This document shows, piece after piece, positions 23,158 through 40,216 of a stretch of DNA of 64,000 bases (position 1 is the first letter of the stretch; every line of letters starts with the position of its first letter). This DNA is from a phage: the sequence record PX880103.1; one strand, written 5' to 3'. The translations under genes and the position numbers were made by a program. The notes below the pieces were generated by a model that worked only from the letters and a program-made list of their open reading frames with translations, ran no database searches and had not been told where the DNA came from.

Positions 23158-23174
23158 TTTATTCTCCAAATCCG

Positions 23175-23211: not shown

Positions 23212-23250
23212 GCTTGTAAACAACTTTGTGAAAAATTTTTGAAATAAAAA

Positions 23251-23270
23251 AGGGAGCCCGAAGGCTCCCT
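23251..23270 (-). terminator. stem-loop with UUCG tetraloop
   Basis: AGGGAGCC-CGAA-GGCTCCCT after nucleotidyltransferase-like ORF, A run upstream on plus strand. Confidence 0.5.
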
Positions 23271-23271
23271 A

Positions 23272-24285
23272 TCATTTATAATAACTTCGATGGTTTTCAA
23301 GATAGACCTTCTCAAGGAAGTCATCCCAGAAACTCATGTCTACTTTTTGCTGCATACCGTTCTTAGAAGCTTCAGTAGATGCTGCTTCTACTTGATCGAC
23401 CACATCTTCCAAAAACTCTTGAACCGTTTTAAATGGATGTTTACCCAACTTCACGTCGAGAATAAATGGAGCATCTTGGAGTGGATAAATCAAGTCGCCA
23501 GTTTTGTAAATTTCCAATAGTTGGAGTCCACCACGACAAGCATGGCTCAGAGCTTTCCAGTCAATACCTTCGTTGGCTTCGGCCTTACGAGCACGTTCAC
23601 CATATTCAGCATCTAATTTGTTCAGTGACTGCTTAAGCTCAATAAGAGAAAGCGTTGTCTGATATTTACGACCCAACACAGTGTAGAACGTTTGTGGGCC
23701 TGTTTTCTCATGATTATGGAACACCCATTCACAGAATTCGTTTTCTGGAAGACGATGCTTAATATCTTCAACTTTAGTGCGACGCTGCTTAATAGAACCA
23801 TCTTCTTGGTAATCAACCCATTGCTCAGGGATTTGATTAACTACTTTCAATACATCACGTAATGCAGCCAAACGAGAACCCTTGACACCGTATTTAGAAG
23901 CTTGCTTGCGGACATATCCTAAATATGATTTCATGTTAGTCGTATAAAAACGAGAACGGTTGTCTTGAATAAACTTCCACACATCAGGCAAATCAGATTT
24001 AACCACTAGTTCAGGTGGAGTGTGAAGCATATCTAATGCTACGGTTTCACCATCTGCTGCTAATTTAAAGAAATATTTAAGACTGTATAGTTCATGGTCA
24101 ATATCATCTTTAGTGTTTTTAGATGATGTGTTGTTAGTGTTTTTACTCATGTGCTCTTTGACATTTCCGATAAGAATATCACGAGCAGGAGGAACAAAAA
24201 TTTCTTTAAAATCTACATCAGATTCTGGGGTAGAAGTTCCATAAAGATGACTACCAAAATAGCTTTTCATTACTGTTTTCATCAT
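23272..24285 (-). CDS. Pol-beta superfamily nucleotidyltransferase-like protein
   Basis: 337 aa, N-terminal motif GSHLYGTSTPESDVDF (G[GS]x(9-13)DxD) plus downstream acidic residues (DIDHE, LDML). Confidence 0.5.
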   Translation of the reverse strand: MMKTVMKSYFGSHLYGTSTPESDVDFKEIFVPPARDILIGNVKEHMSKNTNNTSSKNTKDDIDHELYSLKYFFKLAADGETVALDMLHTPPELVVKSDLPDVWKFIQDNRSRFYTTNMKSYLGYVRKQASKYGVKGSRLAALRDVLKVVNQIPEQWVDYQEDGSIKQRRTKVEDIKHRLPENEFCEWVFHNHEKTGPQTFYTVLGRKYQTTLSLIELKQSLNKLDAEYGERARKAEANEGIDWKALSHACRGGLQLLEIYKTGDLIYPLQDAPFILDVKLGKHPFKTVQEFLEDVVDQVEAASTEASKNGMQQKVDMSFWDDFLEKVYLENHRSYYK

Positions 24286-24743
24286 TCAGCCTTATATTCA
24301 ATAACAGGACATACTTTAGCTTTACGAGCTTTTAAAAATTCGACGATAATCGATTTCTTGGGTTGAATAGGAGGTAAACCTTTATACGCTCTATCAATAT
24401 TTTCTACGTGTAAAGCATAATCCTTTTTCCATTTATAATCTTTATATTTTTCATGCAAATGTGCAGGAATAACAAATGAACCGATAATAAGTAAAACAAC
24501 CAAAAGCGCAAGTATAAATGCCGATGGAAGAAGAGTCCATAAACTACCGAAAATAAGCCAACGTTGTAGGCTTTCTGCACAAATAATTGTTAGCCCTACG
24601 AGTATAGCACATCCAAAAATAGAAACGAAAAATGTAGGAATGGCAATAGACCAAAAATATGCGCATAGTGTCTTAGGTCGTTGCCATTCATCGTTAAACA
24701 ATTTGAATAATTTATAATGCCAAGAGTTTTCATTAATAATCAT
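24282..24743 (-). CDS. membrane protein
   Basis: 153 aa, three hydrophobic segments. Confidence 0.45.
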   Translation of the reverse strand: MIINENSWHYKLFKLFNDEWQRPKTLCAYFWSIAIPTFFVSIFGCAILVGLTIICAESLQRWLIFGSLWTLLPSAFILALLVVLLIIGSFVIPAHLHEKYKDYKWKKDYALHVENIDRAYKGLPPIQPKKSIIVEFLKARKAKVCPVIEYKAE

Positions 24744-24745
24744 AA

Positions 24746-25267
24746 TTATCCTTTCATTGAAGGCGTAACGGTTGTTAAATACTTAATCATAGCTTCAGCT
24801 TCTGATTTTGATAATGAAATTTCTCCATTGTTTTGACGAATAGAAATAAAATCCGGATGACGGTCACCACCAGCTTTTAAAACACACATATAAGTATCAG
24901 TTTCACCTTCAATATTTGAAATGATTGAAGCAGTTCCACATGAATGCGGTTTTTGATAAATCAATGCAGCTTTTCTTCCGCCATTTGACTGCTCATAGGC
25001 TTTTAATACATCAAGCAAATCAGTTCTTTTATCAATAGCTAAAATGTTATTTTCATCTTCAATGTTAAATCCTTCGGATACTTCATAAAGTGTTACCCAT
25101 AAATCACTAATGTCAATAACAGCATTTACTTTTCCACGGCTTTCAAGAGTATGACAAATTTTCTTGATTTCGTCATAACTCATTTTAATAATATCATCTC
25201 CTTGACTAAGGAAGATGTCATTTTTAAATTCAACACGAATTAAACCGCTTCCACTTGAAATAAACAT
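24746..25267 (-). CDS. hypothetical protein (tandem paralog A)
   Basis: 173 aa; C-terminus SKSEAEAMIKYLTTVTPSM resembles C-terminus of next ORF. Confidence 0.45.
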   Translation of the reverse strand: MFISSGSGLIRVEFKNDIFLSQGDDIIKMSYDEIKKICHTLESRGKVNAVIDISDLWVTLYEVSEGFNIEDENNILAIDKRTDLLDVLKAYEQSNGGRKAALIYQKPHSCGTASIISNIEGETDTYMCVLKAGGDRHPDFISIRQNNGEISLSKSEAEAMIKYLTTVTPSMKG

Positions 25268-25273
25268 ATTTCC

Positions 25274-25819
25274 TCACTTTGAAATCATAGTTGGAATAAC
25301 AGAATCAAGATAAGTTTTTAGTGCAATAGCTTCGTCTTTGGTAAATGTGACAATATGTGCTCGAAAATCGTCAATTTGACGAATAGTTAAGACATCTCCA
25401 TCTTCATAACATTTTGATACGTTTAAAACAGTTTCATCATTCTGATTGCAAGCGTTAGTAATAATAGCATTGCAATTTTTAAACCATTTTAAACTATGTT
25501 TTCTTTCATTAGAATAATAAAAATATTTAATCTTATCTATAAAACTATCCCAATGGATAACTGATAAGCATATTGACTCGCTTTCAATATTAAATCCTGG
25601 GCATGAAGAATAAAAATGAATTTTATGCTCATCATTAATGCTTACAATTTTATCAGTATAAGGATTTTCAATTTTGGTTAAATGAATGATTTCACTAGGC
25701 GTAAAATACAGCATATCGTCTTCTTGTGTCAAACGATACATATTATTTACTTTTTCTATAGCCAATTCACCAAAAAGTGAACTAACTTCTAATACTAATC
25801 GTTTCGCCGCTACCGTCAT
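25274..25819 (-). CDS. hypothetical protein (tandem paralog B)
   Basis: 181 aa; C-terminus TKDEAIALKTYLDSVIPTM. Confidence 0.45.
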   Translation of the reverse strand: MTVAAKRLVLEVSSLFGELAIEKVNNMYRLTQEDDMLYFTPSEIIHLTKIENPYTDKIVSINDEHKIHFYSSCPGFNIESESICLSVIHWDSFIDKIKYFYYSNERKHSLKWFKNCNAIITNACNQNDETVLNVSKCYEDGDVLTIRQIDDFRAHIVTFTKDEAIALKTYLDSVIPTMISK

Positions 25820-25949
25820 TACATACTCCTCTGAATCATATCAATAATGTTGTTCACCAAATTATAAGTAAACATTGGGTAATTATATTGAATCATCACA
25901 TACACAACAAACAAAACTTTCATTCTCTTCTCCTTGGCAGTTGACAAGA

Positions 25950-25981
25950 TTACTATATCATAACCTTGCCAACTTGTAAAC
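25950..25981 (-). promoter_or_regulatory. T4-type early promoter candidate
   Basis: Minus strand GTTTAC-N18-TATAGT. Confidence 0.35.
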
Positions 25982-25983
25982 CA

Positions 25984-26157
25984 TTAAATGACGTTTTCAA
26001 TAAAATTCTGAAGCTTTGTGTGAGCATCAACCATGATTTTCATTTCTTCTTTGGCGAAAGCTGTACCTCTTTCCCGAGAAGAACATTCATAGTCAGAAAC
26101 TGCGTTAGCATATTCTTCAATTAGTTTCATTAAAAACATCTGCTTTTCAGTTTTCAT
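25984..26157 (-). CDS. small hypothetical protein
   Basis: 57 aa ATG ORF (MKTEKQMFLMK...), below ORF-track cutoff. Confidence 0.25.
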   Translation of the reverse strand: MKTEKQMFLMKLIEEYANAVSDYECSSRERGTAFAKEEMKIMVDAHTKLQNFIENVI

Positions 26158-26341
26158 TATTCCACCTAATCATTTCAAGATATTGAACTAACTTAGCTTT
26201 AGATTTATCCAAATCCTTTTTAGCTGCTTCTATACCGTCGTATGAATATCCTTCACAATGCTCAACTGCTAATTGATATGAATCTATTTCAATATCACGT
26301 GCTAATTTAATGATTTTTTCAAACTGTTCGCGTGTTAGCAT
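26147..26341 (-). CDS. hypothetical protein
   Basis: 64 aa ORF. Confidence 0.35.
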   Translation of the reverse strand: MLTREQFEKIIKLARDIEIDSYQLAVEHCEGYSYDGIEAAKKDLDKSKAKLVQYLEMIRWNNEN

Positions 26342-26343
26342 AC

Positions 26344-26562
26344 TTAAACTCTCGTATTATGATCGATAATTTCATCAAGAAACATATCTAACGCTTCTAA
26401 AGCATTATCAACTTTAGCTTCAAATTCTTCAATACCTGATAAGGCAAAGTTAATGCGCTCCTCATCTGCTTTACGAATTAAAGCTACCAATTCCTTAATT
26501 TTATCAGCTTGTTCGATACTAATCATTATTCCACCACATATGAAAGAGAGAATATTGCACAC
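26344..26562 (-). CDS. hypothetical protein
   Basis: 72 aa acidic ORF. Confidence 0.35.
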
Positions 26563-26714
26563 GCCATGTGAGTTGCAACTTCATCACACATATTATAACG
26601 TTTCTTAAGAAGTTCTACAAGTTCTTCACTAGTAACTTCATCCATGTCGACGAAAAAATCACCATTAATGATGACGTAGATATTTCCTTCTTGATTGAGT
26701 GCTTCAATTTTCAT
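26526..26714 (-). CDS. hypothetical protein
   Basis: 62 aa from ATG ([10 protein letters not shown]...); extension overlaps promoter motif. Confidence 0.35.
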
Positions 26715-26736
26715 GATGTTCTCCTCTTTATCCGAT

Positions 26737-26772
26737 GGTTGTATAGTACCACAGCTCAAACGGAAAGTAAAC
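26737..26772 (-). promoter_or_regulatory. T4-type early promoter candidate (repeated cassette)
   Basis: Minus strand GTTTAC ... TGGTACTATACAACC. Confidence 0.4.
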
Positions 26773-26787
26773 CGGTAAAATGAAAAA

Positions 26788-26805
26788 AGTCTCCCGAAGG
26801 AGACT
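26788..26805 (-). terminator. stem-loop with UUCG tetraloop
   Basis: AGTCTCC-CGAA-GGAGACT after ORF 26810-27196. Confidence 0.5.
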
Positions 26806-26809
26806 AATG

Positions 26810-27196
26810 TTATTCGAGGGAAAGAAGATACTTACTCTGGTAAAACATTCCAGTAATATCATCTATCGTGCTTTGGATGGCTGGAGGCATTTCTTTATAA
26901 ATGCTGTTAGATTGGTCTAGTATGCGATCAATCATTTTAATTGTGTCGGTAGGAAGTTTACTGGCATCTGGAATTGAAGGTGTGTATTTTCGACCAGAAT
27001 ACCCCAAATATTGCTCACCAAATTTATCAATCAAATCTGGCAACTCGGAGAAAATAAAATCGTATGCTTTGTGTCTAGCATAACTTTTAGTTTCAAAATG
27101 TGCAGAATGAAAATAAGCTTGTGCAGCCATTAATAAACCTAAGTATTCATCTGCCTTTGAAGGTTTTCCACTTTGTGAAAAGTCGCTGAATTTCAT
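26810..27196 (-). CDS. hypothetical protein (rI.-1-like)
   Basis: 128 aa ORF directly downstream of rI. Confidence 0.45.
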
Positions 27197-27486
27197 TCAG
27201 TCTCCAATTTAATGTTCATAATTCTAGCGTATGATTGTGCCATCTCCGCGCCTCGTTCTATACATTCAAAATCAGAAGAGCACGGGTCATTTTTATAGGT
27301 CGTTCTCATAAAACTATAGAATTGTTCAGACGATTCTACGCTTTTATTTTCAAAAAGTGTATAAACGTGCCTAATACCAGATTCCATAAATTTATCAAAA
27401 TGAGGATCGACATTCGCTTCAATTGATGGAGATAAAACAAATGACAATCCTAGCATGGCAAAAAGTGCCGTTGCTTTTAAGGCCAT
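27193..27486 (-). CDS. rI: lysis inhibition regulator RI
   Basis: 97 aa, MALKATALFAMLGLSFVLSPSIEANVDPHFDKFMESGIRHVY..., signal-anchor N-terminus, matches recalled T4 RI. Confidence 0.85.
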   Translation of the reverse strand: MALKATALFAMLGLSFVLSPSIEANVDPHFDKFMESGIRHVYTLFENKSVESSEQFYSFMRTTYKNDPCSSDFECIERGAEMAQSYARIMNIKLETE

Positions 27487-27498
27487 AAAGGCCTCCTA

Positions 27499-27711
27499 TC
27501 ATTTTTGTCCTGTATTTACTTTATGCCGATGCACGGCCTTAACTTTATCAAGGTATTTTTCAAAATTTCGCAATCTAGTATAGTCTGCCAGAGATTGGTT
27601 GAGTGATACTTCTCGACGCAAAGCTGAAATGATATTTCCAACTTCCCTACGAATTTCATCTAATTGAAGCACAGTAAGATTGCGAAGTTGCTTTTCAGTT
27701 AATTGTAGCAT
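27499..27711 (-). CDS. hypothetical protein (rI.1-like)
   Basis: 70 aa ORF. Confidence 0.4.
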
Positions 27712-27739
27712 ATATACCCCTTTAGTTAGATAAACCTAT

Positions 27740-28336
27740 TTATAACTTTTGCACTAACCGAGTTTTTTTAGTTAATTCATTCCAATGTTTTCTACACAAA
27801 GAAACATAAATTTCATCACCAATACAGATTTGATTACCTTCTTTAACAGGTGTTCCATCTTCCATTAATCGAGCTGTCATAATCGCTTTTTTACCGCAAT
27901 GACAAACCGCCTTTAGTTCAATAAGTTTATCTGCAATCGCTAAAAGTTCTTTAGAACCTTCAAACAATTTTCCAGCGAAATCAGTCCTTAATCCATAAGC
28001 CATAACAGGAACATTATATGTATCAACAATTCGGCTCAATTGATGCACTTGTTCAGTTTTTAAAAACTGAGCTTCATCTACAAATACGCAATGAATATCT
28101 TTTTGTGCTTCAGCCCATTTATAGAACTCGAAAATATCCATATCATCTGTAATAATATTCGCTTCCTGCTTAATTCCAATGCGAGAAACGACTTCACAGA
28201 CAGAATCGCGAGTATCAATAGCAGGCTTAAGAACTAATACACTCATTCCACGTTCTTTATAATTATGTGCAGCAGTCAAAAGAGAAGCAGATTTTCCAGC
28301 ATTCATTGCTGCATAAGTAAAAATTAAACTCGCCAT
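27740..28336 (-). CDS. tk: thymidine kinase
   Basis: 198 aa, P-loop AMNAGKSASLL, C-terminal Zn cysteines CHCGKKA...C..H. Confidence 0.9.
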   Translation of the reverse strand: MASLIFTYAAMNAGKSASLLTAAHNYKERGMSVLVLKPAIDTRDSVCEVVSRIGIKQEANIITDDMDIFEFYKWAEAQKDIHCVFVDEAQFLKTEQVHQLSRIVDTYNVPVMAYGLRTDFAGKLFEGSKELLAIADKLIELKAVCHCGKKAIMTARLMEDGTPVKEGNQICIGDEIYVSLCRKHWNELTKKTRLVQKL

Positions 28337-28337
28337 C

Positions 28338-28526
28338 TTAGTCCTTAGTTAAATTTTCTAAATATGTTTCTAAATCATTTTCAGCTTTATCGATAGATTT
28401 TACTAATTCGTAATATGTTTCGGCATCTCCATAATCAGAAGATAATTCAAAAGACAAATCCTTTTCTAAACTAACAATTTCACCAACTAAAAATAATATT
28501 TCGTTCTTTTGTTCGCGAGTAATCAT
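28338..28526 (-). CDS. hypothetical protein (tk.1-like)
   Basis: 62 aa acidic ORF. Confidence 0.35.
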   Translation of the reverse strand: MITREQKNEILFLVGEIVSLEKDLSFELSSDYGDAETYYELVKSIDKAENDLETYLENLTKD

Positions 28527-28714
28527 AAGGAATTTATATAATTAATAAGTTCTTGTTCTTTATTATCGAATTCTTTAGAAAGTTCTTCGTATTCATTTAC
28601 GTTAAAAGGACCGCATTCATTACAAACTCTTTCTAATTCACTATTTTTATCCATAACTTCGTGGATAAGAGAAAAGAGTTTGTCTTTTTGTTCTTTACTT
28701 AAACTCATAACCAT
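28523..28714 (-). CDS. hypothetical protein (tk.2-like)
   Basis: 63 aa acidic ORF. Confidence 0.35.
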   Translation of the reverse strand: MVMSLSKEQKDKLFSLIHEVMDKNSELERVCNECGPFNVNEYEELSKEFDNKEQELINYINSL

Positions 28715-28932
28715 GTCACCTTTAAGCAGTATTCTTCTACATGCTGTTTACGACCTTTCTTATCAATAAAGGTATATTCAACGAATGTTCCAATGTAGTC
28801 TTTATCTACATCATGTGGACTATTAATTGGACATTTAGTACGGCAAATGCGTTCCCATTGACGAATAATTACTGCCTTATTCTTTGGGTCATATGGATGT
28901 GGATAATGTATATTCATAATAACGGTTCCCAA
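28705..28932 (-). CDS. hypothetical protein (tk.3-like)
   Basis: 75 aa ORF. Confidence 0.35.
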   Translation of the reverse strand: MGTVIMNIHYPHPYDPKNKAVIIRQWERICRTKCPINSPHDVDKDYIGTFVEYTFIDKKGRKQHVEEYCLKVTWL

Positions 28933-29381
28933 TCAACAATCACAATTTCTAATTTAGAGGAATACGTATCTAAAATATCTTCAATAATATCCCAGTTCCC
29001 TTTACCTATGCCTGCACCAATCCTAGGCATATAGATTGTAGGTTTAATCAGTTTATTTTCACCAAACTCATTTAATTCTAACATACAATTCATTAAAGCG
29101 GAATACTCAAAATTTGGCCCTGGTTGAAATTGAGTATAAAGGTTGAAGCAATACGCTTTATGAGTCCTAAAGTATTTTTCATAGACTGAGTAAGAACCGA
29201 GTTTAGTTACATCACCCCATTCAGTCTGTAATTTATCAGCTTCCAAAATTTTAGGGAAAGCTTTGGTTAATTGACCCGCTACGCCTGAACCCATAGTATG
29301 AAAACAATTGCATCCATGCGCAATATTTTTACCTTCAGCGAAAAGGGCGACAATATCGCCCTTGATATATTTTACAATCAT
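28914..29381 (-). CDS. macro-domain protein (ADP-ribose binding/processing)
   Basis: 155 aa; GDIVALFAEGKNIAHGCNCFHTMGSGVAGQL and PRIGAGIGKGNW fit macro-domain N-terminal and C-terminal glycine-rich signatures. Confidence 0.55.
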   Translation of the reverse strand: MIVKYIKGDIVALFAEGKNIAHGCNCFHTMGSGVAGQLTKAFPKILEADKLQTEWGDVTKLGSYSVYEKYFRTHKAYCFNLYTQFQPGPNFEYSALMNCMLELNEFGENKLIKPTIYMPRIGAGIGKGNWDIIEDILDTYSSKLEIVIVDWEPLL

Positions 29382-29725
29382 CTAGTACTCAATCCTCGAT
29401 TATAAGAATCTACCAAACGGTCAACCATTGAATGACAAGCGGCTTTATCTTTCTCCTCCGCAACTGAACATTCTAAAGTATTCCACTTTTTAGCATATCG
29501 TTTTAACAATGTATAGTTTTTGTATCTGCTTGATTTATCCCTTTCTCCGTCTTTATATGCATATATTAATTTCTGTGCAAATTCAGCTTGGCATGCTTTA
29601 TTTTTCCCACAATAATCTGCCGCAGTGCGGTTTACATATTCTCTAATTTCAGTATATGATGTATCTGCTGACGCAGAAGCAGAAAATGAAATTAATCCTA
29701 TACATAAAACCAAAATTTTAGTCAT
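29378..29725 (-). CDS. vs: Vs valyl-tRNA synthetase modifier-like secreted protein
   Basis: 115 aa with N-terminal signal peptide, at the T4 vs position next to regB. Confidence 0.6.
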   Translation of the reverse strand: MTKILVLCIGLISFSASASADTSYTEIREYVNRTAADYCGKNKACQAEFAQKLIYAYKDGERDKSSRYKNYTLLKRYAKKWNTLECSVAEEKDKAACHSMVDRLVDSYNRGLSTR

Positions 29726-30263
29726 TTACTATTTCCAAAAGTTTATTATTTTTAAGGTAATTAGCCTTTTCTAGGACTTCAGAAGCATATTTAGAACCTG
29801 CTTTAACATTCCATCCCGAATTATAAGAGGATATTGCTTTTCTTATATCGCCCTTATGTATATTTAACCAATAAGAAAGTTCAATGTACGCCCAGGAAGC
29901 TGAATTGGATCGTTTATTCAACATTCTTTTTATTTCAGCATCGGTCATATTATAACCAAGTTCCTTAACTCTTGCTCGCATAGTAGGCAAATAATTTTGG
30001 AACATTCCGTAGGCGTGATGCTTTGGTTTAGATTTTAAATTAACTCCGCCAGAGCTTTCTTGCCATAAAATGGCTGCCATTATATGACCTAATCCGCTCT
30101 TGTGGATATTTTTATGTGTTTTATATTTTCCATCCTTAGAAAATTGTTCCCCGAATTGATACGCGTAACGCATGTTATCGAGTTGGACATTACTGAAAGT
30201 ATGCTCGGAGCTATGTGCCATCATTGAAATGGCCAATAGACCAGCGAGTAGTGCTTTTCTCAT
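29718..30263 (-). CDS. lytic transglycosylase-like secreted protein (vs.1-like)
   Basis: 181 aa, signal peptide, SLT-like motifs WQESSGG, YGMFQN, SYNSG. Confidence 0.5.
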   Translation of the reverse strand: MRKALLAGLLAISMMAHSSEHTFSNVQLDNMRYAYQFGEQFSKDGKYKTHKNIHKSGLGHIMAAILWQESSGGVNLKSKPKHHAYGMFQNYLPTMRARVKELGYNMTDAEIKRMLNKRSNSASWAYIELSYWLNIHKGDIRKAISSYNSGWNVKAGSKYASEVLEKANYLKNNKLLEIVND

Positions 30264-30270
30264 GCTTACC

Positions 30271-30732
30271 TCATTGAGTTTTAATTACTGCTTTAGAAGC
30301 CTTTCCTGGTAAACGACGACTGTTAATAATTGCCATCCTACATTGAAGTGACGGGTCTTTGAACTTCTCGTTAGGTTTACAAACTGTAAATCCGAGCCAA
30401 AGATTTCCATCTGTGATTTCTAAACGTCCAGGACGATATTCAACCCCATCAATAAAATCCTCGTCAATGTCAGGACGCGGAGGCATACTCAGGAATTCAT
30501 TAACTTCTAAAACATGGTCTTTTATTTTATGGAATAATTCAAAAACGTATGTCTCATCAATCTCCCGTTGAATTGCACGATCAAGAAGATGTTGAGAATA
30601 TTTTAGATGAAACGATGAGACCCCTGCTGCTTTTGATGCCTCACGAATCTCATTGTTAATTTGACGAAACTCCGACTCAAAGTGACGACGAAGCTTATTT
30701 CGACGGATAAAAACTTCAGTGTTGATAGTCAT
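30271..30732 (-). CDS. regB: RegB site-specific endoribonuclease
   Basis: 153 aa, MTINTEVFIRRNKLRRHFESEFRQINNEIREASK... matches recalled T4 RegB. Confidence 0.85.
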   Translation of the reverse strand: MTINTEVFIRRNKLRRHFESEFRQINNEIREASKAAGVSSFHLKYSQHLLDRAIQREIDETYVFELFHKIKDHVLEVNEFLSMPPRPDIDEDFIDGVEYRPGRLEITDGNLWLGFTVCKPNEKFKDPSLQCRMAIINSRRLPGKASKAVIKTQ

Positions 30733-30754
30733 GTTATTCTCCTCTTAACTGATA

Positions 30755-30789
30755 GAAAAATTATACCACAGTCAAGAGGAAAAGTAAAC
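30755..30789 (-). promoter_or_regulatory. T4-type early promoter candidate upstream of regB
   Basis: Minus strand GTTTAC ... TGGTATAAT. Confidence 0.45.
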
Positions 30790-30791
30790 AG

Positions 30792-31070
30792 TTATTCTTT
30801 AAATCTAATCAATTTATTCATAGACTTTGAAACTTCTGCACGGACCTCATGTAGGTTTTTAAGTTGTTCAAGACGTTGCTCATAGTAAGCAATTTCATCT
30901 TCTTCGAGACAGTCCTGCGAATCTTCTTTAAGATACCGTGCATAGTCCTGGAAAGCGTTACGGACTACTTCCTGGAAGTCATCAAGACTTTGAATTTTCT
31001 TAGGAGCAACAGATACACGACGAGGGGCAGTATAATACTCGTAACCAAACCCTGCGCTTAATTGAGCCAT
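30792..31070 (-). CDS. hypothetical protein (vs.x-like)
   Basis: 92 aa from ATG ([13 protein letters not shown]...); ATG overlaps upstream stop. Confidence 0.4.
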
Positions 31071-31372
31071 TAGTATTTTTCCTCTGGTTGGAACACTGCA
31101 CGACAAGCCCACATACTGGCTTCTTTGAGTTTCGTTTTAGCAATAGTTAACTGATCGAGGCTTTCAGCATAATTCTTCGCGAATTCACAGTCTTCACAAT
31201 TATCTAGTGCTTCCCAGAATTCATCATATAAAGCATCAAAGATAAGTCCTAAACGAACTTCAGCGTCTTTGATAGCATTTACTTTACCGATTTTCTCTTC
31301 AGTATGTGGCTTATAACCCTTAATATCTTCAATCATATTTGACTTCCTCACCAGTACATAAATCATATTCAA
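31070..31372 (-). CDS. hypothetical protein (vs.x-like)
   Basis: 100 aa acidic ORF. Confidence 0.4.
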
Positions 31373-31550
31373 CTAAACGAATGGGTTCATGAATGCCATA
31401 TCCCTGAACAGAAATTTCTGTTGTAGGATAAATTCCATCAATATCACCCATATTCCACGCTTCATTAAATTGCTGTTCGCCTGAATTACTAAACCACTCG
31501 GCGAAAGCATTTAGCACATCTTCAGAACCTTCAATAATTATCTTTGCCAT
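31329..31550 (-). CDS. hypothetical protein (vs.x-like)
   Basis: 73 aa acidic ORF. Confidence 0.35.
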   Translation of the reverse strand: MAKIIIEGSEDVLNAFAEWFSNSGEQQFNEAWNMGDIDGIYPTTEISVQGYGIHEPIRLVEYDLCTGEEVKYD

Positions 31551-31912
31551 TACAAACTCTCGGTAAAGGTACGAGCGATAACGTCGCGCTGCTGTTCCGG
31601 AGTCAGAGAGTTAAAGCGAACTGCATAACCGGATACACGGATGGTCAGCTGCGGATATTTTTCCGGATGCTTAACTGCATCTTCCAGAGTTTCACGACGC
31701 AGAACGTTAACGTTCAGGTGTTGACCACCTTCAATTTTAACTGTAGGTTGTGTTTCAATTTCAATTTCACGGGCATGCAAACCATAGAAAATTTCTGGGT
31801 CTACAAAAGAGTCCTCTTTAAAGGTTTTAGAAACAATAATTCGCGCTTGAATACCATCTTCAAAATAAATAGTACCTTTATGCGTGCCTTCAAGAATTTG
31901 ATATGCTTTCAT
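31550..31912 (-). CDS. autonomous glycyl radical cofactor GrcA/YfiD-like protein
   Basis: 120 aa; C-terminal ~60 aa [61 protein letters not shown] with glycyl radical motif RVSGYA, matching recalled E. coli GrcA C-terminus. Confidence 0.75.
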
Positions 31913-31918
31913 ATAACC

Positions 31919-32248
31919 TCAATTAGAAAATAAATTTATCCAAGATTGTTCTTTAATTAAAAATGGCTCAGAATCATATGCCATTAAACTTTGGGTGATT
32001 AGTCCTTTAAAAGGCCCATCAATAAATTCCATGGTAAAATATGGAATTTTATTCATTAACTTTGCATTAGGAGCAGTACACAAAACTCTACATCCTTTGA
32101 ATACACCTTTTTGTAATTTGTATTGCTTAGGATAAAATTCGCTCAAGACGTTGTTATTTGCCAAAATTTCAAAATGATTCACCAATTTATTTTTAATAGT
32201 TTTTGGCGAAAAATAAAGATATTCGAAAAGTTGTGTGTCTGTCATCAT
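31919..32248 (-). CDS. hypothetical protein
   Basis: 109 aa ORF. Confidence 0.4.
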   Translation of the reverse strand: MMTDTQLFEYLYFSPKTIKNKLVNHFEILANNNVLSEFYPKQYKLQKGVFKGCRVLCTAPNAKLMNKIPYFTMEFIDGPFKGLITQSLMAYDSEPFLIKEQSWINLFSN

Positions 32249-32832
32249 TGCATTCCAATTACGAAAAACTGTGGACGAGTAATACCATCAATGCAACATT
32301 TACTGTTGCAGCAGTGTTGTACAGTTTCAATATGAATATCGTAAATTTTATCCATATCAGGAGATTTAACAGGCTCATCGATTATATACAAAATCCGCGA
32401 AAGCGATAAACCTCTGAACTTGCTACCTCTATTACCAACAAAACTACGGACAGAATCAGTAAATAAACGGAATCGAATATCATCGCTAGAATAACGAGAA
32501 AATTCTTTTTTAATGTTGCCAGCAGAAATTTTAGCATAAGCTGAAGTATTAGAAAGAACAATAACTGTTCCGCCGTCATACAGCCAATTAGCAGCGAAGT
32601 TAGTCACAGCAGTTGATTTACCAGATTGACGTCCACCATCTAGTCGAAGTGTGCAATACTGCTTAAGTAAGTCTTCAAATGGCGGGATATAATCATTTTT
32701 ACAAATTTCTTCTACTCTAGCATCAGAATGGTGTGTAAAAGCATTCATCAGGGATAGATAAGGACCAGTTAAAAATGTTCTCATTTTGTTCTCTCTAAAT
32801 TTGGGCCATTCCGTGGCGCATGAATTGTCCAT
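32245..32832 (-). CDS. small P-loop NTPase
   Basis: Walker A GGRQSGKST, Walker B-like ILYIIDE; start uncertain (internal ATG MRTFLTG possible). Confidence 0.45.
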   Translation of the reverse strand: MDNSCATEWPKFRENKMRTFLTGPYLSLMNAFTHHSDARVEEICKNDYIPPFEDLLKQYCTLRLDGGRQSGKSTAVTNFAANWLYDGGTVIVLSNTSAYAKISAGNIKKEFSRYSSDDIRFRLFTDSVRSFVGNRGSKFRGLSLSRILYIIDEPVKSPDMDKIYDIHIETVQHCCNSKCCIDGITRPQFFVIGMQ

Positions 32833-33017
32833 TTCTGTATTTACCCATTACCGCACTTGGGCTCGACCTTATTACAGGTTGGCGGGAATCCCTCACAGAA
32901 TCATGAGGTCCAGCTTGTTCCCATGTTATTTGAATGTAAATATTTTTGCCTTAATACTTATACCAGTGTGGCTTCATTAAAATTTTTTCATCGAGTCATT
33001 TTACCTCTCCAAGTAAT

Positions 33018-33053
33018 TATGAATATACTATCACAATTTTAGGAGAAAGTAAA
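33018..33053 (-). promoter_or_regulatory. T4-type early promoter candidate
   Basis: Minus strand GTTTAC-N18-TAGTATAT; near-identical copy at 34362-34397. Confidence 0.4.
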
Positions 33054-33056
33054 CTG

Positions 33057-33359
33057 TTATTTACCTTTAATTACTTTAGCTGCTTCGATAGCCGCTTGCT
33101 GAAGGTCATCCATAGACATACCGAATTTAGAAGCAAAGTTATCAATTTTCTTTTCGACAGCATTCAAAGGCTTGGCCTGTTTACCTTCATTAGCGCCAGG
33201 AAGAGCGAGAATACGCTCTTTGTCAATATAAAGGCTTACAAGTTTCTTACGGTCTTTATCGGACAAATCATGAAATGAATGGGCCTTTTTATTTATAGCG
33301 GCTTCTAATTTACCTGCACTCACTCGCGCTTCAGTAATAAATTCTTGATATGTTTTCAT
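33057..33359 (-). CDS. ipII: internal protein II-like (capsid-targeted)
   Basis: 100 aa, N-terminal capsid targeting sequence MKTYQEFITE with ITE protease site. Confidence 0.6.
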   Translation of the reverse strand: MKTYQEFITEARVSAGKLEAAINKKAHSFHDLSDKDRKKLVSLYIDKERILALPGANEGKQAKPLNAVEKKIDNFASKFGMSMDDLQQAAIEAAKVIKGK

Positions 33360-33400
33360 ATGTTTCCTTTAAATGTAAATAGGCCTAAGTATCGGCCTTA

Positions 33401-33979
33401 TTAATTACCACGGGCTGCATTAGCAACGGCATAAGCGTACTGAACATTAGCGTCCTTAAACGTACCTTTAGAGGTATCTATTTCTGCCTTAAAGCCGCCT
33501 TTAGCCATAACATCGGCAAATTCTTTACGGAAAGCCATTGCATCAAGACCTTTCCATGATGATTTGTGCTTGGCGAATTCAAGACCAGCGTAGTTGACAG
33601 CCTTAGCTAATTTATTATCAATGACCCATTTACCGGCTTTAGGCACAAACTTCGGACCTTTTTGTTTAGAGAACAGTTTTAAATTCCAGCGACGAAGATC
33701 ACTGTCGGCTTTAACAAAAGCTGCGTCTAAGTTACTAGCAACAACATCTTCAATATGAGCAAATTTAAGTCCGTCAACTTCAATATTTAAATCGGTACGC
33801 CAGCGAAGTCCTTCCCAAGCGAAAGCTTTAAAATCGGAAGCTTTTGTAGCTAAGTATCGTTCAATAGGGGCTGTTTTAGGGTCAAAGCCGTTTCCACCAC
33901 GATAGTTCCACTCATCTTTATTAATGCCTTTGGCCTTTACTACAGAAGCTTCAGCGATAAATTCTTTATACGTTTTCAT
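33401..33979 (-). CDS. ipIII: internal protein III-like (capsid-targeted)
   Basis: 192 aa, N-terminal MKTYKEFIAE CTS. Confidence 0.6.
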   Translation of the reverse strand: MKTYKEFIAEASVVKAKGINKDEWNYRGGNGFDPKTAPIERYLATKASDFKAFAWEGLRWRTDLNIEVDGLKFAHIEDVVASNLDAAFVKADSDLRRWNLKLFSKQKGPKFVPKAGKWVIDNKLAKAVNYAGLEFAKHKSSWKGLDAMAFRKEFADVMAKGGFKAEIDTSKGTFKDANVQYAYAVANAARGN

Positions 33980-33995
33980 GTGTTTCCTTTAATTT

Positions 33996-34313
33996 TTATT
34001 CTTTAGGGAAGTTTTTAGAATATGCATCATAAAGCTTATTTCCAATACGGCGGAAAACTCTAGCCGCAAAACGATTTTCTGGGTTTTTAATCATGATTTG
34101 CATCATATAAGTACCCGCGTCAGAAAGAGCTTCTTCATAGTACCCGTTAATTTCTTTAAGAGTCCTACGTTTACCACCAGGACCATCAACAGTGATTTTC
34201 CATTTACCCGTAGAAGTGCGACTTGGCGGCTCAACTTGTTCAATCCAGATATAACCGCCTTCTACACGTTGTCCTGCAGCAGATTCTGCAATAAATTCTT
34301 GATATGTTTTCAT
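33996..34313 (-). CDS. additional CTS-bearing internal-protein candidate
   Basis: 105 aa, N-terminal MKTYQEFIAE CTS; lies between e and ipIII. Confidence 0.5.
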   Translation of the reverse strand: MKTYQEFIAESAAGQRVEGGYIWIEQVEPPSRTSTGKWKITVDGPGGKRRTLKEINGYYEEALSDAGTYMMQIMIKNPENRFAARVFRRIGNKLYDAYSKNFPKE

Positions 34314-34361
34314 GTGTTTCCTTTAAATATTTTAATTAGTAATTTATCTATTCAAGTAACT

Positions 34362-34397
34362 GTGAATATACTATCACAATTCCAAGAGAAAGTAAAC
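34362..34397 (-). promoter_or_regulatory. T4-type early promoter candidate
   Basis: Minus strand GCTGTTTACTTTCTCTTGGAATTGTGATAGTATATTCAC. Confidence 0.4.
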
Positions 34398-34401
34398 AGC
34401 T

Positions 34402-35370
<969 letters not shown>

Positions 35371-35389
<19 letters not shown>

Positions 35390-35733
35390 TCACTCACAAA
35401 CTCTTTCATTGACTCATTTTCAATATAAGACATGTAGCTATTATATTCCTTTAATTGTATTTTGTAATCCTTTTTTCTTTGCCAATTTATTTTAAAATTA
35501 TCATAATGAAAATATAAAATGATACCAAAGAATGAAAACAATGAAATAATTTTAGTATAACAAAGCTCACTCCAAACTTCTGTTATATTTACTGTGCCGT
35601 CGATGTTTAAAATAAGACAGTCAATTAACAATCCAAAAAGACTACCCGCAAGAGCTGCAGCCAACGCCACAGCAAAAATTAAAAATGACTCAGGAAACGA
35701 ATATTTGACTTTATTTAGTTTTGGCTTTTGCAT
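35371..35733 (-). CDS. membrane protein (e.x-like)
   Basis: 120 aa, two hydrophobic helices. Confidence 0.4.
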
Positions 35734-36128
35734 CGTGATTCCTTAACAAATTTCATAATTTCATCAAATTCATACGCAGCAAGTTTAAGCTGATGTTCCT
35801 TTTTAATCTTTTTACACTGTGCTTTCCAATCACATACGCGTTTACGATAATGTCTTCCTTGATACCAGTATCCTACCCAATTTACGGGTACTAATAAAAG
35901 TGGAACTATTAATGGAAGAATTAGCATTAACACAAGTATTTCGCCAGAATCAATATCAGTCATAACATCTAAAACACCTCCAATAATCAATAGAATTACA
36001 AATGATATAAGTATAACAGGACCTATTAATACATCAGTAGAAATTATCTGACGCTTTAATTCATACTTCAACGGTTTACTTGGAAGGTATAGTGATGGTT
36101 TTGACATATTCTCTACATTCCTTAACAA
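35715..36128 (-). CDS. membrane protein (e.x-like)
   Basis: 137 aa, two hydrophobic helices. Confidence 0.4.
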   Translation of the reverse strand: MLRNVENMSKPSLYLPSKPLKYELKRQIISTDVLIGPVILISFVILLIIGGVLDVMTDIDSGEILVLMLILPLIVPLLLVPVNWVGYWYQGRHYRKRVCDWKAQCKKIKKEHQLKLAAYEFDEIMKFVKESRCKSQN

Positions 36129-36684
36129 ATTTTTCTAGTAATAAATCACTTTCAAAATTAGGATTTTCCACTAATTTATCAAAAAGATCATCAACAATAT
36201 TCAAGATATTTCTTTTACTAAGAATACGTTTATTTTCATGCTTCGTTTCAGAATCAACTATAAGAGTAAAGAAATATTTCTTTCCCTGAAATTTTACTGT
36301 AGTATCAATATAGAATAAATTTGACTTTTGTAAATTACGTTTAAACCATGCGTCACTTAAACTATAAACACCGAGATAATCAAAATCGTCGTTTAAATAA
36401 CATACTGTCCATTCAGGAGAAATGAAATCAGTAAATTCAACATCAAAATCACATGTCAATGAATAAATTGATTCAATACTGTTAATAAGTATTCCAGGAC
36501 GTATTAAAGACTTTTTACCTCTGGAAAATCTTCCAGAAAGACTTTCATCAGTTTCATATGAAGAACCCCAATAATAATTACGTCCTTCTGCCATACGTTT
36601 AAGAGCATTTAATAATTGGTCTGGAACATCAACCTGTCTTTGGAACTCTTCAAACATTGAATTGAAATCACTTTGCATTTTCAT
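36076..36684 (-). CDS. hypothetical protein (e.x-like)
   Basis: 202 aa ORF. Confidence 0.4.
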   Translation of the reverse strand: MKMQSDFNSMFEEFQRQVDVPDQLLNALKRMAEGRNYYWGSSYETDESLSGRFSRGKKSLIRPGILINSIESIYSLTCDFDVEFTDFISPEWTVCYLNDDFDYLGVYSLSDAWFKRNLQKSNLFYIDTTVKFQGKKYFFTLIVDSETKHENKRILSKRNILNIVDDLFDKLVENPNFESDLLLEKFVKECREYVKTITIPSK

Positions 36685-36704
36685 TCCTATTTACTCCAAG
36701 TAAT

Positions 36705-36720
36705 AGGGGCCGAAGCCCCT
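36705..36720 (-). terminator. stem-loop with UUCG tetraloop
   Basis: AGGGGC-CGAA-GCCCCT after ORF 36726-37319. Confidence 0.45.
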
Positions 36721-36725
36721 TATCA

Positions 36726-37319
36726 TTATTTCAGAGAATTAATGTATTCCTGAACATCGGCAGAGGTAGTTTCAACCCCAGAAATATTACCATTAAAGGT
36801 TTCAACTCGAGCAAGAGTATCTTCAATATCAACCTTAGTCAGCGCTGCAATTTCAACTACATCATCGGCAGTACTAATTCCAAGGGCATTTGCTGCACGA
36901 GTTTCACGGATATATTCCAATTTAACTGCAAGTTCTTGGCGAGCATCATCTAACTCAACTACTTTCTTAGCGATTTCAATTCGCATTTCAGCATACCCAT
37001 CAGCTTTAGTAGTCAGCTGTTCAGCTGTTCGACGATATAGCAAACCGAGTTTAGCATGCATTGTTACATCTTGACCTTCGGAAAGAAGCTTGCGAATTTC
37101 ACGCTCTTTTGATTCGGCCTGTTTATTCTTTTCAATAACAAGTTCACGAATACGTTTTTCTTCATTAATAGATTTAATAGAAGCAGTTTTTAGATCTTTA
37201 ATTTTATCAAGTAGTTTTGCTGCCGCAGCAGTATACTGTTCTTCAACAGATAGATTTTTAGCCATAGCAGAACCGAGTTTAGTGCGAATAAACTCAACAA
37301 TTTTCTTCAGTGTGTTCAT
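36726..37319 (-). CDS. coiled-coil protein (e.x-like)
   Basis: 197 aa, largely helical/coiled-coil composition. Confidence 0.4.
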
Positions 37320-37362
37320 AGTATTTCCTTAGGTTAATTAAGATTTAAAATCCATGAGAGTA

Positions 37363-37539
37363 TTATACTCCGGATAGTTTGTAAACTATTTCAACATCGC
37401 CTTTTGCTGCTTTATAACCTTCAGCCCAAGATACAACCGAGTTTTTATCTGAAGATTCAAATTCTGGCATTGGGCTTTCTCCAATGTTCACGCAGTATGT
37501 TTCTTCATTTTCGTCGAACCAAATAATTAAAGTAGTCAT
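37363..37539 (-). CDS. small hypothetical protein
   Basis: 58 aa ATG ORF (MTTLIIWFDENEETY...), below ORF-track cutoff. Confidence 0.25.
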   Translation of the reverse strand: MTTLIIWFDENEETYCVNIGESPMPEFESSDKNSVVSWAEGYKAAKGDVEIVYKLSGV

Positions 37540-37607
37540 TTATTTCTCCGTTTCTGTATTTGTTTTGATAAGTCTATAATAACACCGTCCTTGGTGTTTG
37601 TACACAA

Positions 37608-37883
37608 TTATTTCATATTATTGAAATATTCTTCTGCGATTTCGTCATTATCATGGTAAACTTTAGAAGACAGTTTAACATAACCTTCTGCCGTGAACAT
37701 ATTAATCACAACCTTTACAGTATACCACTGACCATCTTCATTACCCATTACTGCGTAAGTTTCAAACATCGGATGGTCAGGACCGATAACTTTAATATCA
37801 TTCACTGTACGACCAAAATCTTCTGAAACGCATTTCATAAAGAAGTTGAACAGTTCGCCGTAATTATCCATTTTATTCTCCAA
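37608..37883 (-). CDS. hypothetical protein (e.x-like)
   Basis: 91 aa ORF with early-promoter motif upstream. Confidence 0.4.
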   Translation of the reverse strand: MENKMDNYGELFNFFMKCVSEDFGRTVNDIKVIGPDHPMFETYAVMGNEDGQWYTVKVVINMFTAEGYVKLSSKVYHDNDEIAEEYFNNMK

Positions 37884-37907
37884 GTTGTTTTCTGTATCAG
37901 TAGTTGA

Positions 37908-37944
37908 TAGTTTTATAGTACCATGGAAGAACAGGGATGTAAAC
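37908..37944 (-). promoter_or_regulatory. T4-type early promoter candidate (repeated cassette)
   Basis: Minus strand AAAACTGTTTAC ... TGGTACTATAAAACTATCAAC. Confidence 0.45.
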
Positions 37945-38100
37945 AGTTTTGTGAAAAATTTTTAGGGAATTCTAGGGGCAGGGAGGGGCAATTAAAAGAT
38001 AGGATAATATATTATAAAGGGTATAAACTAAATGATGCCTAGAGAGGTCTGGAAAGGCCTAGATACCAAAAATCCCTATCATTTAGATAGGGATTTAAAA

Positions 38101-38664
38101 TTATTTACCTAGTTTAGTTATTATAGCTTCGGCAGCAGCTTTTAGCTTAGATGCAGTGTTAATACGATTTTTAATTTCAGTATAAGCATCGCCAAGAACA
38201 TCAAGGCTATCAGAATAAACACTTACACTATTGCGTTCGCTATTTGAAATAGAACCTTTAGTTTTACGATCAAAATCAGTGTACACATCTTGAAGATCGC
38301 GGGCTGCCTTCTTTGCATCATCTAACGCATCAAGAGCTTTATTCAAAGCATTGACATATTTTTTAGTATCAAACATATTCTTAGAAATTTTGACAGGTGC
38401 GCGTTCAGGAGTAGCTAAGGCAGATTTAGGAACCTGAGCGCCTGATGCTAATTTCTTAGAAATTTTGAAAAATGCTTTATTGAATTTATTTTCTTGACTC
38501 ATCGTAAAAGAACTATTATCAATGTTATACATTTCAATAGCTTTAGCTTTCCACTTAAGAAAATCGCCACGGTCTTTTGGGTCCAATTGGAAGAATACTT
38601 TAGTAAGATCTGCTTCAGATGGTAATTTTGCTGCTTCGGTTAAAAATTCGGCATAGGTTTTCAT
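38101..38664 (-). CDS. CTS-bearing protein (e.8-like), possible internal protein
   Basis: 187 aa, N-terminus MKTYAEFLTEAAKL resembles capsid targeting sequence. Confidence 0.45.
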   Translation of the reverse strand: MKTYAEFLTEAAKLPSEADLTKVFFQLDPKDRGDFLKWKAKAIEMYNIDNSSFTMSQENKFNKAFFKISKKLASGAQVPKSALATPERAPVKISKNMFDTKKYVNALNKALDALDDAKKAARDLQDVYTDFDRKTKGSISNSERNSVSVYSDSLDVLGDAYTEIKNRINTASKLKAAAEAIITKLGK

Positions 38665-38751
38665 TTAAAATCCTTGAAATAATTTATCGGTTGGTTATTA
38701 ATTATTTATTACTTTGTTATTATCCGTAACAGCATTCTCTATGTGATTCAA

Positions 38752-38780
38752 ACTAAAAAGCCCCAACCTTTCGGTCGGGG
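38752..38780 (-). terminator. rho-independent terminator downstream of tRNA region
   Basis: Minus strand CCCCGACC-GAAA-GGTTGGGG followed by CTTTTTAGTTT. Confidence 0.55.
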
Positions 38781-39098
38781 CTAAGCCTTGCGGCAACCTT
38801 GTCGGGGTTCCACCTGCTAAGGCAAGTGTTTGTACGAAACGCCGGGATTCGAACCCGGTTATTAAGCAGTTGACGCTACTCAATATTTTTAAAAGGCCAT
38901 ATCTCGACCATATCCGAACGTTCCGTCAAAAACGCTACTCGGCTTACGGCAAAGATATTTCCTCGAATCGATAATTCTGTGCGCCGTTTCTGCTGTGATG
39001 TAAGGGGACATTAACAGATCGTAAAGATTTGATAATGTCAGTCCTTACTCAGGGAACATCAGTCCGACGACTTACCGGTAGCGACCCGGTTTCTTGTT

Positions 39099-39174
39099 TG
39101 GTCGAGGCAGTAGGGATCGAACCTACGACCTAGGACTTAGAAGGTCCTTGCTCTTCCTTCTGAGCTATGCCTCG
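39099..39174 (-). tRNA. tRNA-Arg: tRNA-Arg (anticodon TCT)
   Basis: Hand-folded cloverleaf: acceptor CGAGGCA/TGCCTCG, anticodon loop CTTCTAA, T-arm GTAGG-TTCGATC-CCTAC, encoded CCA. Confidence 0.8.
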
Positions 39175-39178
39175 GATT

Positions 39179-39252
39179 TGGCGGACGTGATAGGATTCGA
39201 ACCTATAACCAATCGCTTAACAGGCGATCGCTCTGCCATTGAGCTACACATC
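39179..39252 (-). tRNA. tRNA-Asn: tRNA-Asn (anticodon GTT)
   Basis: Hand-folded: acceptor GGATGTG/CACGTCC, anticodon stem ATCGC/GCGAT with loop CTGTTAA, T-loop TTCGAAT, encoded CCA. Confidence 0.7.
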
Positions 39253-39257
39253 CAAAT

Positions 39258-39344
39258 TGGTGGGGAGTGATGGAGTCGAACCACCCGAGTCGCAATGACA
39301 ATGGATTTACAGTCCACACCGCTACCTCTACGGGATAACTCCCC
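39258..39344 (-). tRNA. tRNA-Tyr: tRNA-Tyr (anticodon GTA), long variable arm
   Basis: Hand-folded: acceptor GGGGAGT/ACTCCCC, anticodon loop CTGTAAA, long variable arm, T-loop TTCGACT, encoded CCA. Confidence 0.65.
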
Positions 39345-39353
39345 AAATTAATT

Positions 39354-39428
39354 TGGTGGCCCTGGGTGGAATTGAACCACCATCTGGCGATTATGAGTCG
39401 CTTGCTTGAACCTTCCAGCTACAGGGCC
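39354..39428 (-). tRNA. tRNA-Met/Ile: tRNA with CAT anticodon (Met or lysidine-modified Ile)
   Basis: Hand-folded: acceptor GGCCCTG/CAGGGCC, anticodon loop CTCATAA, T-arm GGTGG-TTCAATT-CCACC, encoded CCA. Confidence 0.7.
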
Positions 39429-39436
39429 AAATTTTC

Positions 39437-39919: not shown

Positions 39920-39966
39920 CACAAATTTCTCTACTTATTCAATACACTGAGCTAAATCAGCAAAAC

Positions 39967-40056
39967 TGGCGGAGGCGATAGGATTTGAACCTATGAGTCG
40001 CCGGAGCGACTGCCGGTTTTCAAGACCGGTGCATTAAACCACTCTGCCACGCCTCC
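39967..40056 (-). tRNA. tRNA-Ser: tRNA-Ser (anticodon TGA), long variable arm
   Basis: Hand-folded: acceptor GGAGGCG/CGCCTCC, anticodon loop CTTGAAA, long variable arm, T-loop TTCAAAT, encoded CCA. Confidence 0.8.
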
Positions 40057-40058
40057 AG

Positions 40059-40132: not shown

Positions 40133-40142
40133 TAAATTAAAT

Positions 40143-40216
<74 letters not shown>

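Follow-up and report, generated by a model that had tools for sequence, protein, structure and literature searches.

A phage glycyl radical gene of the T4 vs.6 type with an interior probably copied from host grcA, and a Klebsiella counterpart

How a T4-like phage comes to carry a protein whose C-terminal half reads as that of its host is the question raised by one gene in sequence record PX880103.1. The stretch analyzed here (the window, 64,000 nucleotides, numbered from its first letter) is a Tequatrovirus (T4-like) genome segment, and the gene in question is the following.

31550 to 31912, minus strand: coding sequence for a GrcA/YfiD-like autonomous glycyl radical cofactor, ortholog of T4 vs.6/Y06I, 120 amino acids, 14 kDa (from the open reading frame list, homology and synteny).

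A first-pass annotation, made from the letters alone, had recognized this open reading frame (ORF) and had proposed a recent host-derived recombination from the near-identity of the protein to E. coli GrcA. The DNA itself contains a gene segment of host-like composition with host-specific synonymous states, and phage-type sequence on either side of it. The reading preferred here, to which a probability of about 85% was given, is that the gene encodes a pyruvate formate-lyase (PFL) spare part of the vs.6/Y06I type whose interior was copied from host grcA, and that such patching was recurrent and matched to the host.

The identity of the gene was established from its protein and its neighbors. 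The ORF begins with ATG, lies on the minus strand as first annotated, and encodes a 120-residue protein with Gly_radical as its sole domain (PF01228, 67.2 bits against a cutoff of 22.2, residues 60–101). A 1.5-kb query around the gene returned matches in 810 phage records, the best at 97.5%. The first-pass annotation had noted that T4 encodes a YfiD homologue, Y06I; this is vs.6 (NC_000866 63557..63919, ‘autonomous glycyl radical cofactor GrcA’ in RefSeq), which shares 118 of 120 amino acids with the phage ORF. Gene order was collinear with T4 on the same strand (vs.8-vs.7-vs.6-vs.5-vs.4-vs.3-regB-vs.1-vs), at 86–100% identity in tblastn searches with the T4 proteins. T4 Vs.6 (Y06I_BPT4) is equal in length, is likewise flanked by vs.7 and vs.5 and likewise contains the tract identical to E. 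coli, and differs by T54P, by R73H (the one non-synonymous change in the T4 tract) and by a few synonymous changes in the final four codons; no functional consequence is read into these differences.

Compared with E. coli GrcA (PDB 6OWR, E = 4.6e-42), residues 61–120 of the phage protein were identical at 60 of 60 positions, the motif RVSGYA included, and the C-terminal identity given in the first-pass annotation is therefore real. The N-terminal 60 amino acids, divergent as had also been noted, could still be aligned to GrcA residues 1–67 (14 of 40 identical, 35%; BLASTP E = 2e-6), and phmmer aligned phage residues 22–120 to GrcA 28–127; homology to GrcA is thus full-length, N-terminus included, and extends beyond the radical domain alone. 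The NCBIfam equivalog profile for GrcA (TIGR04365; the family is IPR011140) was matched over positions 25–126 of 126; the score of 154.6 bits falls short of the cutoff of 170, a deficit due to the divergent N-terminus. The C-terminal part also matched residues 697–759 of the PFL chains 1CM5/1H16 (E = 4.8e-26), and the predicted radical-bearing residue was located by translation, motif position and alignment.

31628 to 31630, minus strand: GGT, the codon of Gly95, which is predicted to bear the radical and lies in the motif RVSGYA.

By alignment, its counterparts are G102 in E. coli GrcA and G734 in PflB. The phage and E. coli proteins are both stand-alone radical domains of like size that share the C-terminal 60 residues and, in the DNA, 172 nt; they differ in that the phage N-terminal half is about 35% identical and 7 residues shorter, and in that E. 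coli grcA adjoins ung/eamB whereas the phage gene sits in an early-gene cluster of a virulent phage.

Identity of the protein is a poor guide to when the sequence was acquired. The C-terminal ~58 residues were near-invariant in the T5-like, Slopekvirus, Krischvirus, Karamvirus, Pseudotevenvirus and Jiaodavirus copies and in hosts ranging from E. coli to Serratia and Edwardsiella, and in T5-like phages the radical-domain DNA was 70–75% like that of the host despite the near-invariant protein. Since phage and host copies alike show next to no variation in the radical domain, protein identity to the host is silent on the date of acquisition, and it was rejected as proof of recency. Near-identity of the protein, on which the first-pass annotation had based its argument, does not suffice for recombination, the same residues being near-identical in phages with 70–85% DNA identity; the caution holds wherever a domain is nearly invariant.

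The DNA was more informative. Nucleotide alignment with E. coli grcA, which had been suggested as a check, extended the identity to the DNA level (172 of 172 nt), and the gene was found to consist of three parts.

31735 to 31912, minus strand: phage-type 5′ part, gene nt 1–178 (codons 1–59 and the first base of codon 60), an AT-rich, divergent homolog of the GrcA N-terminus.

31563 to 31734, minus strand: patch of 172 nt equal to E. coli grcA and probably host-derived (exact run, alignment), residues 61–116 and adjoining bases, in the glycyl radical domain.

31550 to 31562, minus strand: 3′ tail, codons ACC GAG AGT TTG and TAA, with 4 synonymous differences from E. coli.

In pairwise alignment the exact run with E. 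coli grcA was 172 nt, and upstream of it similarity fell abruptly to unalignable sequence; DNA alignment of the 5′ part (31735..31912) with E. coli grcA gave no similarity. The 3′ 185 nt matched grcA at 97.8% in every one of 5426 complete E. coli genomes (blastn). At a per-site identity of 85%, the upper range of unconverted phage copies, a run of this length would have a probability of 0.85^172, or ~7e-13, and chance is excluded as its source. Over its last 186 nt the phage gene was 82% identical to Salmonella grcA, 85% to that of Klebsiella and 90% to that of Citrobacter amalonaticus, values about equal to E. coli's own divergence from these genera. There are 22 sites in these 186 nt that tell E. 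coli grcA from K. pneumoniae grcA, and the phage gene had the E. coli state at 21 of them, the exception being tail position 174 (the ACC codon), just beyond the 3′ edge of the run. A scan for host identity was limited to positions 20001–44000 of the window, within which the grcA tract was the sole DNA at least 95% identical to E. coli chromosomes. Candidate donors pflB and tdcE were rejected, as the best E. coli match was always grcA and secondary places were ~80% identical. Separately, megablast of 20001..44000 against E. coli genomes returned 264 plasmid places at 80–90% identity to some part of this interval.

Composition was in keeping with the alignment. The 5′ part had a GC content of 0.33 and a GC content at third codon positions (GC3) of 0.19, the patch 0.49 and 0.43, with GC3 of the E. 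coli grcA tract also 0.43 and that of neighboring phage genes 0.23–0.27. The 3′ tail encodes TESL, as in the host, and its stop codon shares bases with the start codon of the vs.5-like ORF that follows (TAATG); its states GAG, AGT and CTA/TTG occur in the Slopekvirus and Pseudotevenvirus copies, where E. coli has GAA, AGC and CTG. Since the last four codons are phage-ancestral, the segment is read as an internal gene-conversion patch and not as a captured 3′ end. An old phage grcA-like gene, present in Straboviridae and beyond, would thus have had the interior of its conserved domain replaced by host sequence.

The direction of transfer could in principle be the reverse, E. coli and K. pneumoniae grcA having received the tract from phages. 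Bidirectional host-phage exchange has been proposed for cyanophage psbA (PMC1484495), and some alleles were common to host and phage populations here. This was nevertheless judged most improbable: GC3 of the tract is host-like (0.43) and not phage-like (0.19–0.27), the tract is present in 5426 of 5426 E. coli genomes, and the distance of E. coli grcA from its Salmonella, Klebsiella and Enterobacter counterparts is alike in tract and 5′ half. For E. coli grcA against Salmonella, divergence was 0.156 in the tract and 0.157 in the 5′ half, which identifies the host as the donor. An artefact, either an assembly chimera or host-read contamination, was considered as well, as short conserved repeats can give chimeric assemblies and a metagenomic host contig (L203) may be a grcA/pflB chimera. 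It can practically be dismissed for the phage gene, since the T4 reference and hundreds of isolates that were sequenced independently have the identical mosaic and junctions, the reading frame is uninterrupted and both junctions fall within one ORF.

The contig in question (L203, metagenome contig OHAV01008836.1, grcA at 301..684) carries an E. coli-type grcA with PflB-type residues in the radical domain (NVMNREMLLDAMENPEKY) and is identical to E. coli pflB over a run of 101 nt; this may be gene conversion between host paralogs, or an assembly chimera on a short contig.

The patch was common to ~645 genomes of the Tequatrovirus/Mosigvirus type, T4 and T2 among them, and it is therefore not an event of this particular phage. 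Of the recent host-derived recombination first proposed, the host origin stands (172 of 172 nt, GC3, tail codons and the Klebsiella parallel given below), and ‘recent’ holds in a relative sense. The tract had at most one mismatch to that of E. coli in 372 of the ~645 genomes, and almost all of the remainder were at ~97% or above; the 5′ half, unlike the tract, separated by genus (Tequatrovirus/Mosigvirus). Synonymous divergence was calculated as Nei-Gojobori pS. Between Tequatrovirus and Mosigvirus, pS fell from 0.327 over the 5′ half to 0.049 over the tract, a ratio of 0.15 (Fisher P = 0.002, mean counts), compared with 0.315 and 0.267 in the T5-like control (325 pairs, ratio 0.85) and 0.382 and 0.385 in the Slopek/Pseudoteven-like control (36 pairs, ratio 1.0). 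As neither control lineage had a tract-specific drop in pS, the idea that synonymous sites of the tract are inherently constrained was discarded. Differences of the tract from E. coli were mostly private singletons, in a star pattern with the host sequence at its center, and the patch is younger than the phage gene that surrounds it.

The same controls bear on a single ancient capture by a T-even ancestor, after which selection acting at synonymous sites, through codon usage or at the RNA level, would have held the tract identical to the host. Such a history would fit the E. coli-preferred codons of the tract and the extreme purifying selection on the domain protein, yet it is very unlikely where the tract pS of control lineages equals that of their 5′ half (ratios 0.85 and 1.0), where the hosts differ among themselves by 12–16% in the tract, and where Klebsiella phages have K. 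pneumoniae synonymous states at 16–19 of 22 sites, which constraint cannot yield.

In a sliding comparison with four Mosigvirus copies, divergence was 25% upstream, 11–13% in the 5′ half, 0–1.7% in the tract and 31–38% downstream; dN/dS in the 5′ part was ~0.15, which indicates purifying selection and is consistent with a working gene. The nearest Mosigvirus mismatches were found 8 nt before the tract and 1–8 nt after it. As this trough of divergence coincides with the limit of host homology, and phage-phage homology runs on into the 5′ half, conversion on a host template is indicated, and separate conversions in Tequatrovirus and Mosigvirus are favored from these alignments.

Phages of Klebsiella provided a parallel case. 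In Jiaodavirus (T4-like, infecting Klebsiella), the protein has the Klebsiella-type variant LLDAVEH in place of the E. coli type LEDAVKH, and the tract was 96–98% identical to metagenomic host loci L171–L173, which were identified as K. pneumoniae grcA by a match of 100% over 981 nt with a record of that species that bears the annotation grcA-srmB. Exact runs with K. pneumoniae grcA were 107–140 nt, against a background 99th percentile of 44 nt taken from host-host pairs of comparable overall identity. The Jiaodavirus copies had the K. pneumoniae state at 16–19 of the 22 diagnostic sites, with exceptions mainly near the patch edges (one copy, L006, also had one in the interior), and E. coli phages had the E. 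coli state at 20–22 of them. The last codons of the Jiaodavirus copies were phage-ancestral too. Among ~134 Klebsiella or Raoultella phage genomes, identity to the K. pneumoniae tract was 92–98%, and the left edge was always as in the E. coli-type patch. On this evidence the Jiaodavirus patch is an independent event from a different donor, and patching has been recurrent and matched to host genus.

In one Klebsiella phage, KPV15 (L252/L116; L252 524..885), the vs.6 5′ half is frameshifted into two short coding sequences and the K. pneumoniae-type tract is intact; this may be a pseudogene or a sequencing error.

For the E. coli phages, an unlikely alternative to separate conversions is one host-to-phage conversion in a single lineage, followed by spread through Tequatrovirus and Mosigvirus by phage-phage recombination in co-infection. 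The two genera have common hosts and are known mosaics, as such a spread would require, the patch has a common left junction and much the same extent in both, and tract pS within genera (0.03–0.07) was similar to that between them (0.05). However, the interval of low divergence ends within 8 nt (left) and 1–8 nt (right) of the host-homology block, and phage-phage homology continues at 87–89% into the 5′ half, where an exchange between phages would have no reason to stop; the Klebsiella case, moreover, is an independent host-templated patch with the same left edge.

The remaining phage lineages with GrcA-like genes (Tequintavirus, Slopekvirus, Karamvirus, Krischvirus and Pseudotevenvirus) encode proteins of similar size (~120–139 amino acids) with the same near-invariant radical domain, and differ in having no recent host patch. 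Tract DNA of Slopekvirus, Karamvirus, Krischvirus, Pseudotevenvirus and T5-like phages was 70–88% identical to any host grcA gene in a sample of 161, and no exact run exceeded 37 nt. Sequences L097–L101, considered as E. coli phages with an unconverted tract, were rejected as such, the group being Enterobacter phage CC31-like (Karamvirus). T5-like copies L010 and L132–L158 end in TFTQAM and have other PflB-like residues in place of the GrcA-like TFTESL, which hints at a pflB origin. A grcA-like ORF on a 19-kb ‘viral’ contig (L119, IMGVR_UViG_2706794630_000006) had a tract 91% identical to Yersinia grcA without long exact runs; the contig may be host DNA, mis-binned or prophage.

Allele sharing was then compared within E. 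coli and its phages. A TCC>TCA allele occurred in ~10% of E. coli (6 of 60 evenly spaced rows were 100% identical to a Mosigvirus tract) and in one Tequatrovirus and one Mosigvirus copy, and the common E. coli GTA allele was carried exactly by phages Shfl2 and EC121. Eleven phage copies were sampled, and of the 11 distinct variants among them 3 matched variants in 14 host alleles, where ~0.9 would be expected. As hundreds of phages (~645) were sampled, single-site coincidences may be parallel mutation.

Several points weigh against the preferred reading of a vs.6/Y06I-type spare part patched repeatedly from host grcA. The two-site host haplotype 24T+48G was found in no phage, the closest being one mismatch off, and for ongoing exchange between host and E. 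coli phages the evidence is no more than suggestive. Yersinia-isolated Tequatroviruses retain the E. coli-type tract, and conversion therefore does not keep pace with host range. The patch was not found in Slopekvirus, Karamvirus (CC31-like), Krischvirus, Pseudotevenvirus or T5-like phages at the identities and run lengths given above (≤88%, ≤37 nt), and Tequatrovirus and Mosigvirus may have passed it between them instead of acquiring it independently. The phage protein scores 154.6 bits where the NCBIfam equivalog model for GrcA demands 170. Finally, the recombination mechanism is deduced from sequence comparison, and the function of the phage protein itself from its orthology to the T4 protein.

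As regards that function, the gene and its biochemical role are already known from T4, and the system as such is not novel. T4 Y06I is reported to be radicalized by PFL-activating enzyme and to restore oxygen-cleaved PFL (Wagner et al. 2001, as cited in PMC8683613), and in the literature its partners are given as host PFL and its activase, not NrdD. At 98% identity, the phage protein presumably does the same. The host PFL-activating enzyme would set the radical on Gly95, and the radicalized protein would dock onto oxygen-cleaved host PFL and substitute for the lost C-terminal radical domain. The restored PFL would then yield fermentative acetyl-CoA and formate, and hence ATP, in an infected cell at fluctuating oxygen.

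T4-like phages degrade host DNA and carry modified cytosines. Under the proposed mechanism of patching, extreme protein constraint on the radical domain would keep phage and host DNA ~75–85% alike, with exact runs of 20–37 nt, and such similarity may be enough for homeologous recombination to occur on rare occasions, or for fragments of host DNA set free in the infected cell to be assimilated by annealing or as single strands. Either process would overwrite nearly the whole homologous block.

A wider and somewhat doubtful extension, put forward tentatively, is that the radical domain forms a standing recombination window between virulent phages and host chromosomes, in which the phage copy is overwritten time and again by host grcA, with a possible return flow of alleles. 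If so, the tract would record the recent host species of a phage lineage, and the phage spare part would stay matched to the GrcA of its resident host, including residues 77 and 81, which are E/K in E. coli phages and L/E in Klebsiella phages. The exact host match at these residues may be adaptive or a neutral by-product. Residues 77 and 81 (codons 31682..31684 and 31670..31672) were also seen to follow host genus where no DNA patch is recognizable: Slopekvirus of Klebsiella has L/E, like Klebsiella, and its Cronobacter and Citrobacter relatives have E/K.

The nearest known comparison is cyanophage psbA/psbD, host-derived metabolic genes in T4-like phages with patchy G+C and signatures of segmental host exchange (Sullivan et al. 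2006, PMC1484495). Both cases have host-like segments and exchange signatures within a metabolic gene of a T4-like phage. The enterobacterial patch differs in being short (172 nt), sharply bounded by the limit of homology and perfectly host-identical, in occurring in T-even phages with hydroxymethylcytosine DNA, and in having a host-species-specific donor (E. coli or K. pneumoniae). Intragenic recombination between host and phage in cyanophage psbA/psbD was also reportedly described by Zeidner in 2005. A prior description of the grcA DNA patch was not found in the searchable literature, which is not proof of absence. Host-specific patching is a new example of host-phage intragenic recombination. 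It offers clean, quantifiable evidence that strictly lytic T4-like phages have, in nature, repeatedly acquired short patches from homologous genes of the host chromosome, with a donor species that fits the host genus of the phage (E. coli for Tequatrovirus/Mosigvirus, K. pneumoniae for Jiaodavirus). The tract could serve as a simple host-tracking marker for T-even phages, and, with synonymously marked grcA, as a tractable system in which to measure host-to-phage gene conversion.

Other features of the locus and its surroundings were as follows.

31917 to 31920, minus strand: Shine-Dalgarno-like GAGG, 5 nt upstream of the vs.6-type ATG, overlapping the stop of the vs.7-like ORF (sequence reading).

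12317 to 14134, minus strand: nrdD (Pfam).

11850 to 12320, minus strand: nrdG (Pfam).

A promoter and terminator scan near the vs.6-type gene gave no signal above shuffle expectation, and co-transcription with the upstream genes is likely because no separate promoter-like signal exceeded that level. The gene had also been placed in the same early block as the glycyl radical enzyme gene nrdD; the two do lie on the same strand, but 17.4 kb apart with many genes between. As nrdD is this distant and the tract is of the PFL/GrcA type, not the NrdD type, the link is loose and thematic only.

Downstream, the vs.5-like ORF (31329..31550, minus strand) encodes 73 amino acids compared with 58 in T4, and its tblastn segments fall in two frames, which indicates an indel or frame difference. 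An additional 105-residue ORF (33996..34313, minus strand) lies between the ipIII-like gene and lysozyme e, where T4 annotates no gene in the stretch examined; it had no Pfam match, and its N-terminus (MKTYQEFIAES...) is ipII/ipIII-like. At the T4 position of denV (endonuclease V), between the vs.8-like and ipII-like genes (32833..33056), the gene is missing, and a C-terminal remnant of 20 amino acids (32936..32995, minus strand) is 70% identical to T4 DenV residues 118–137 (tblastn).

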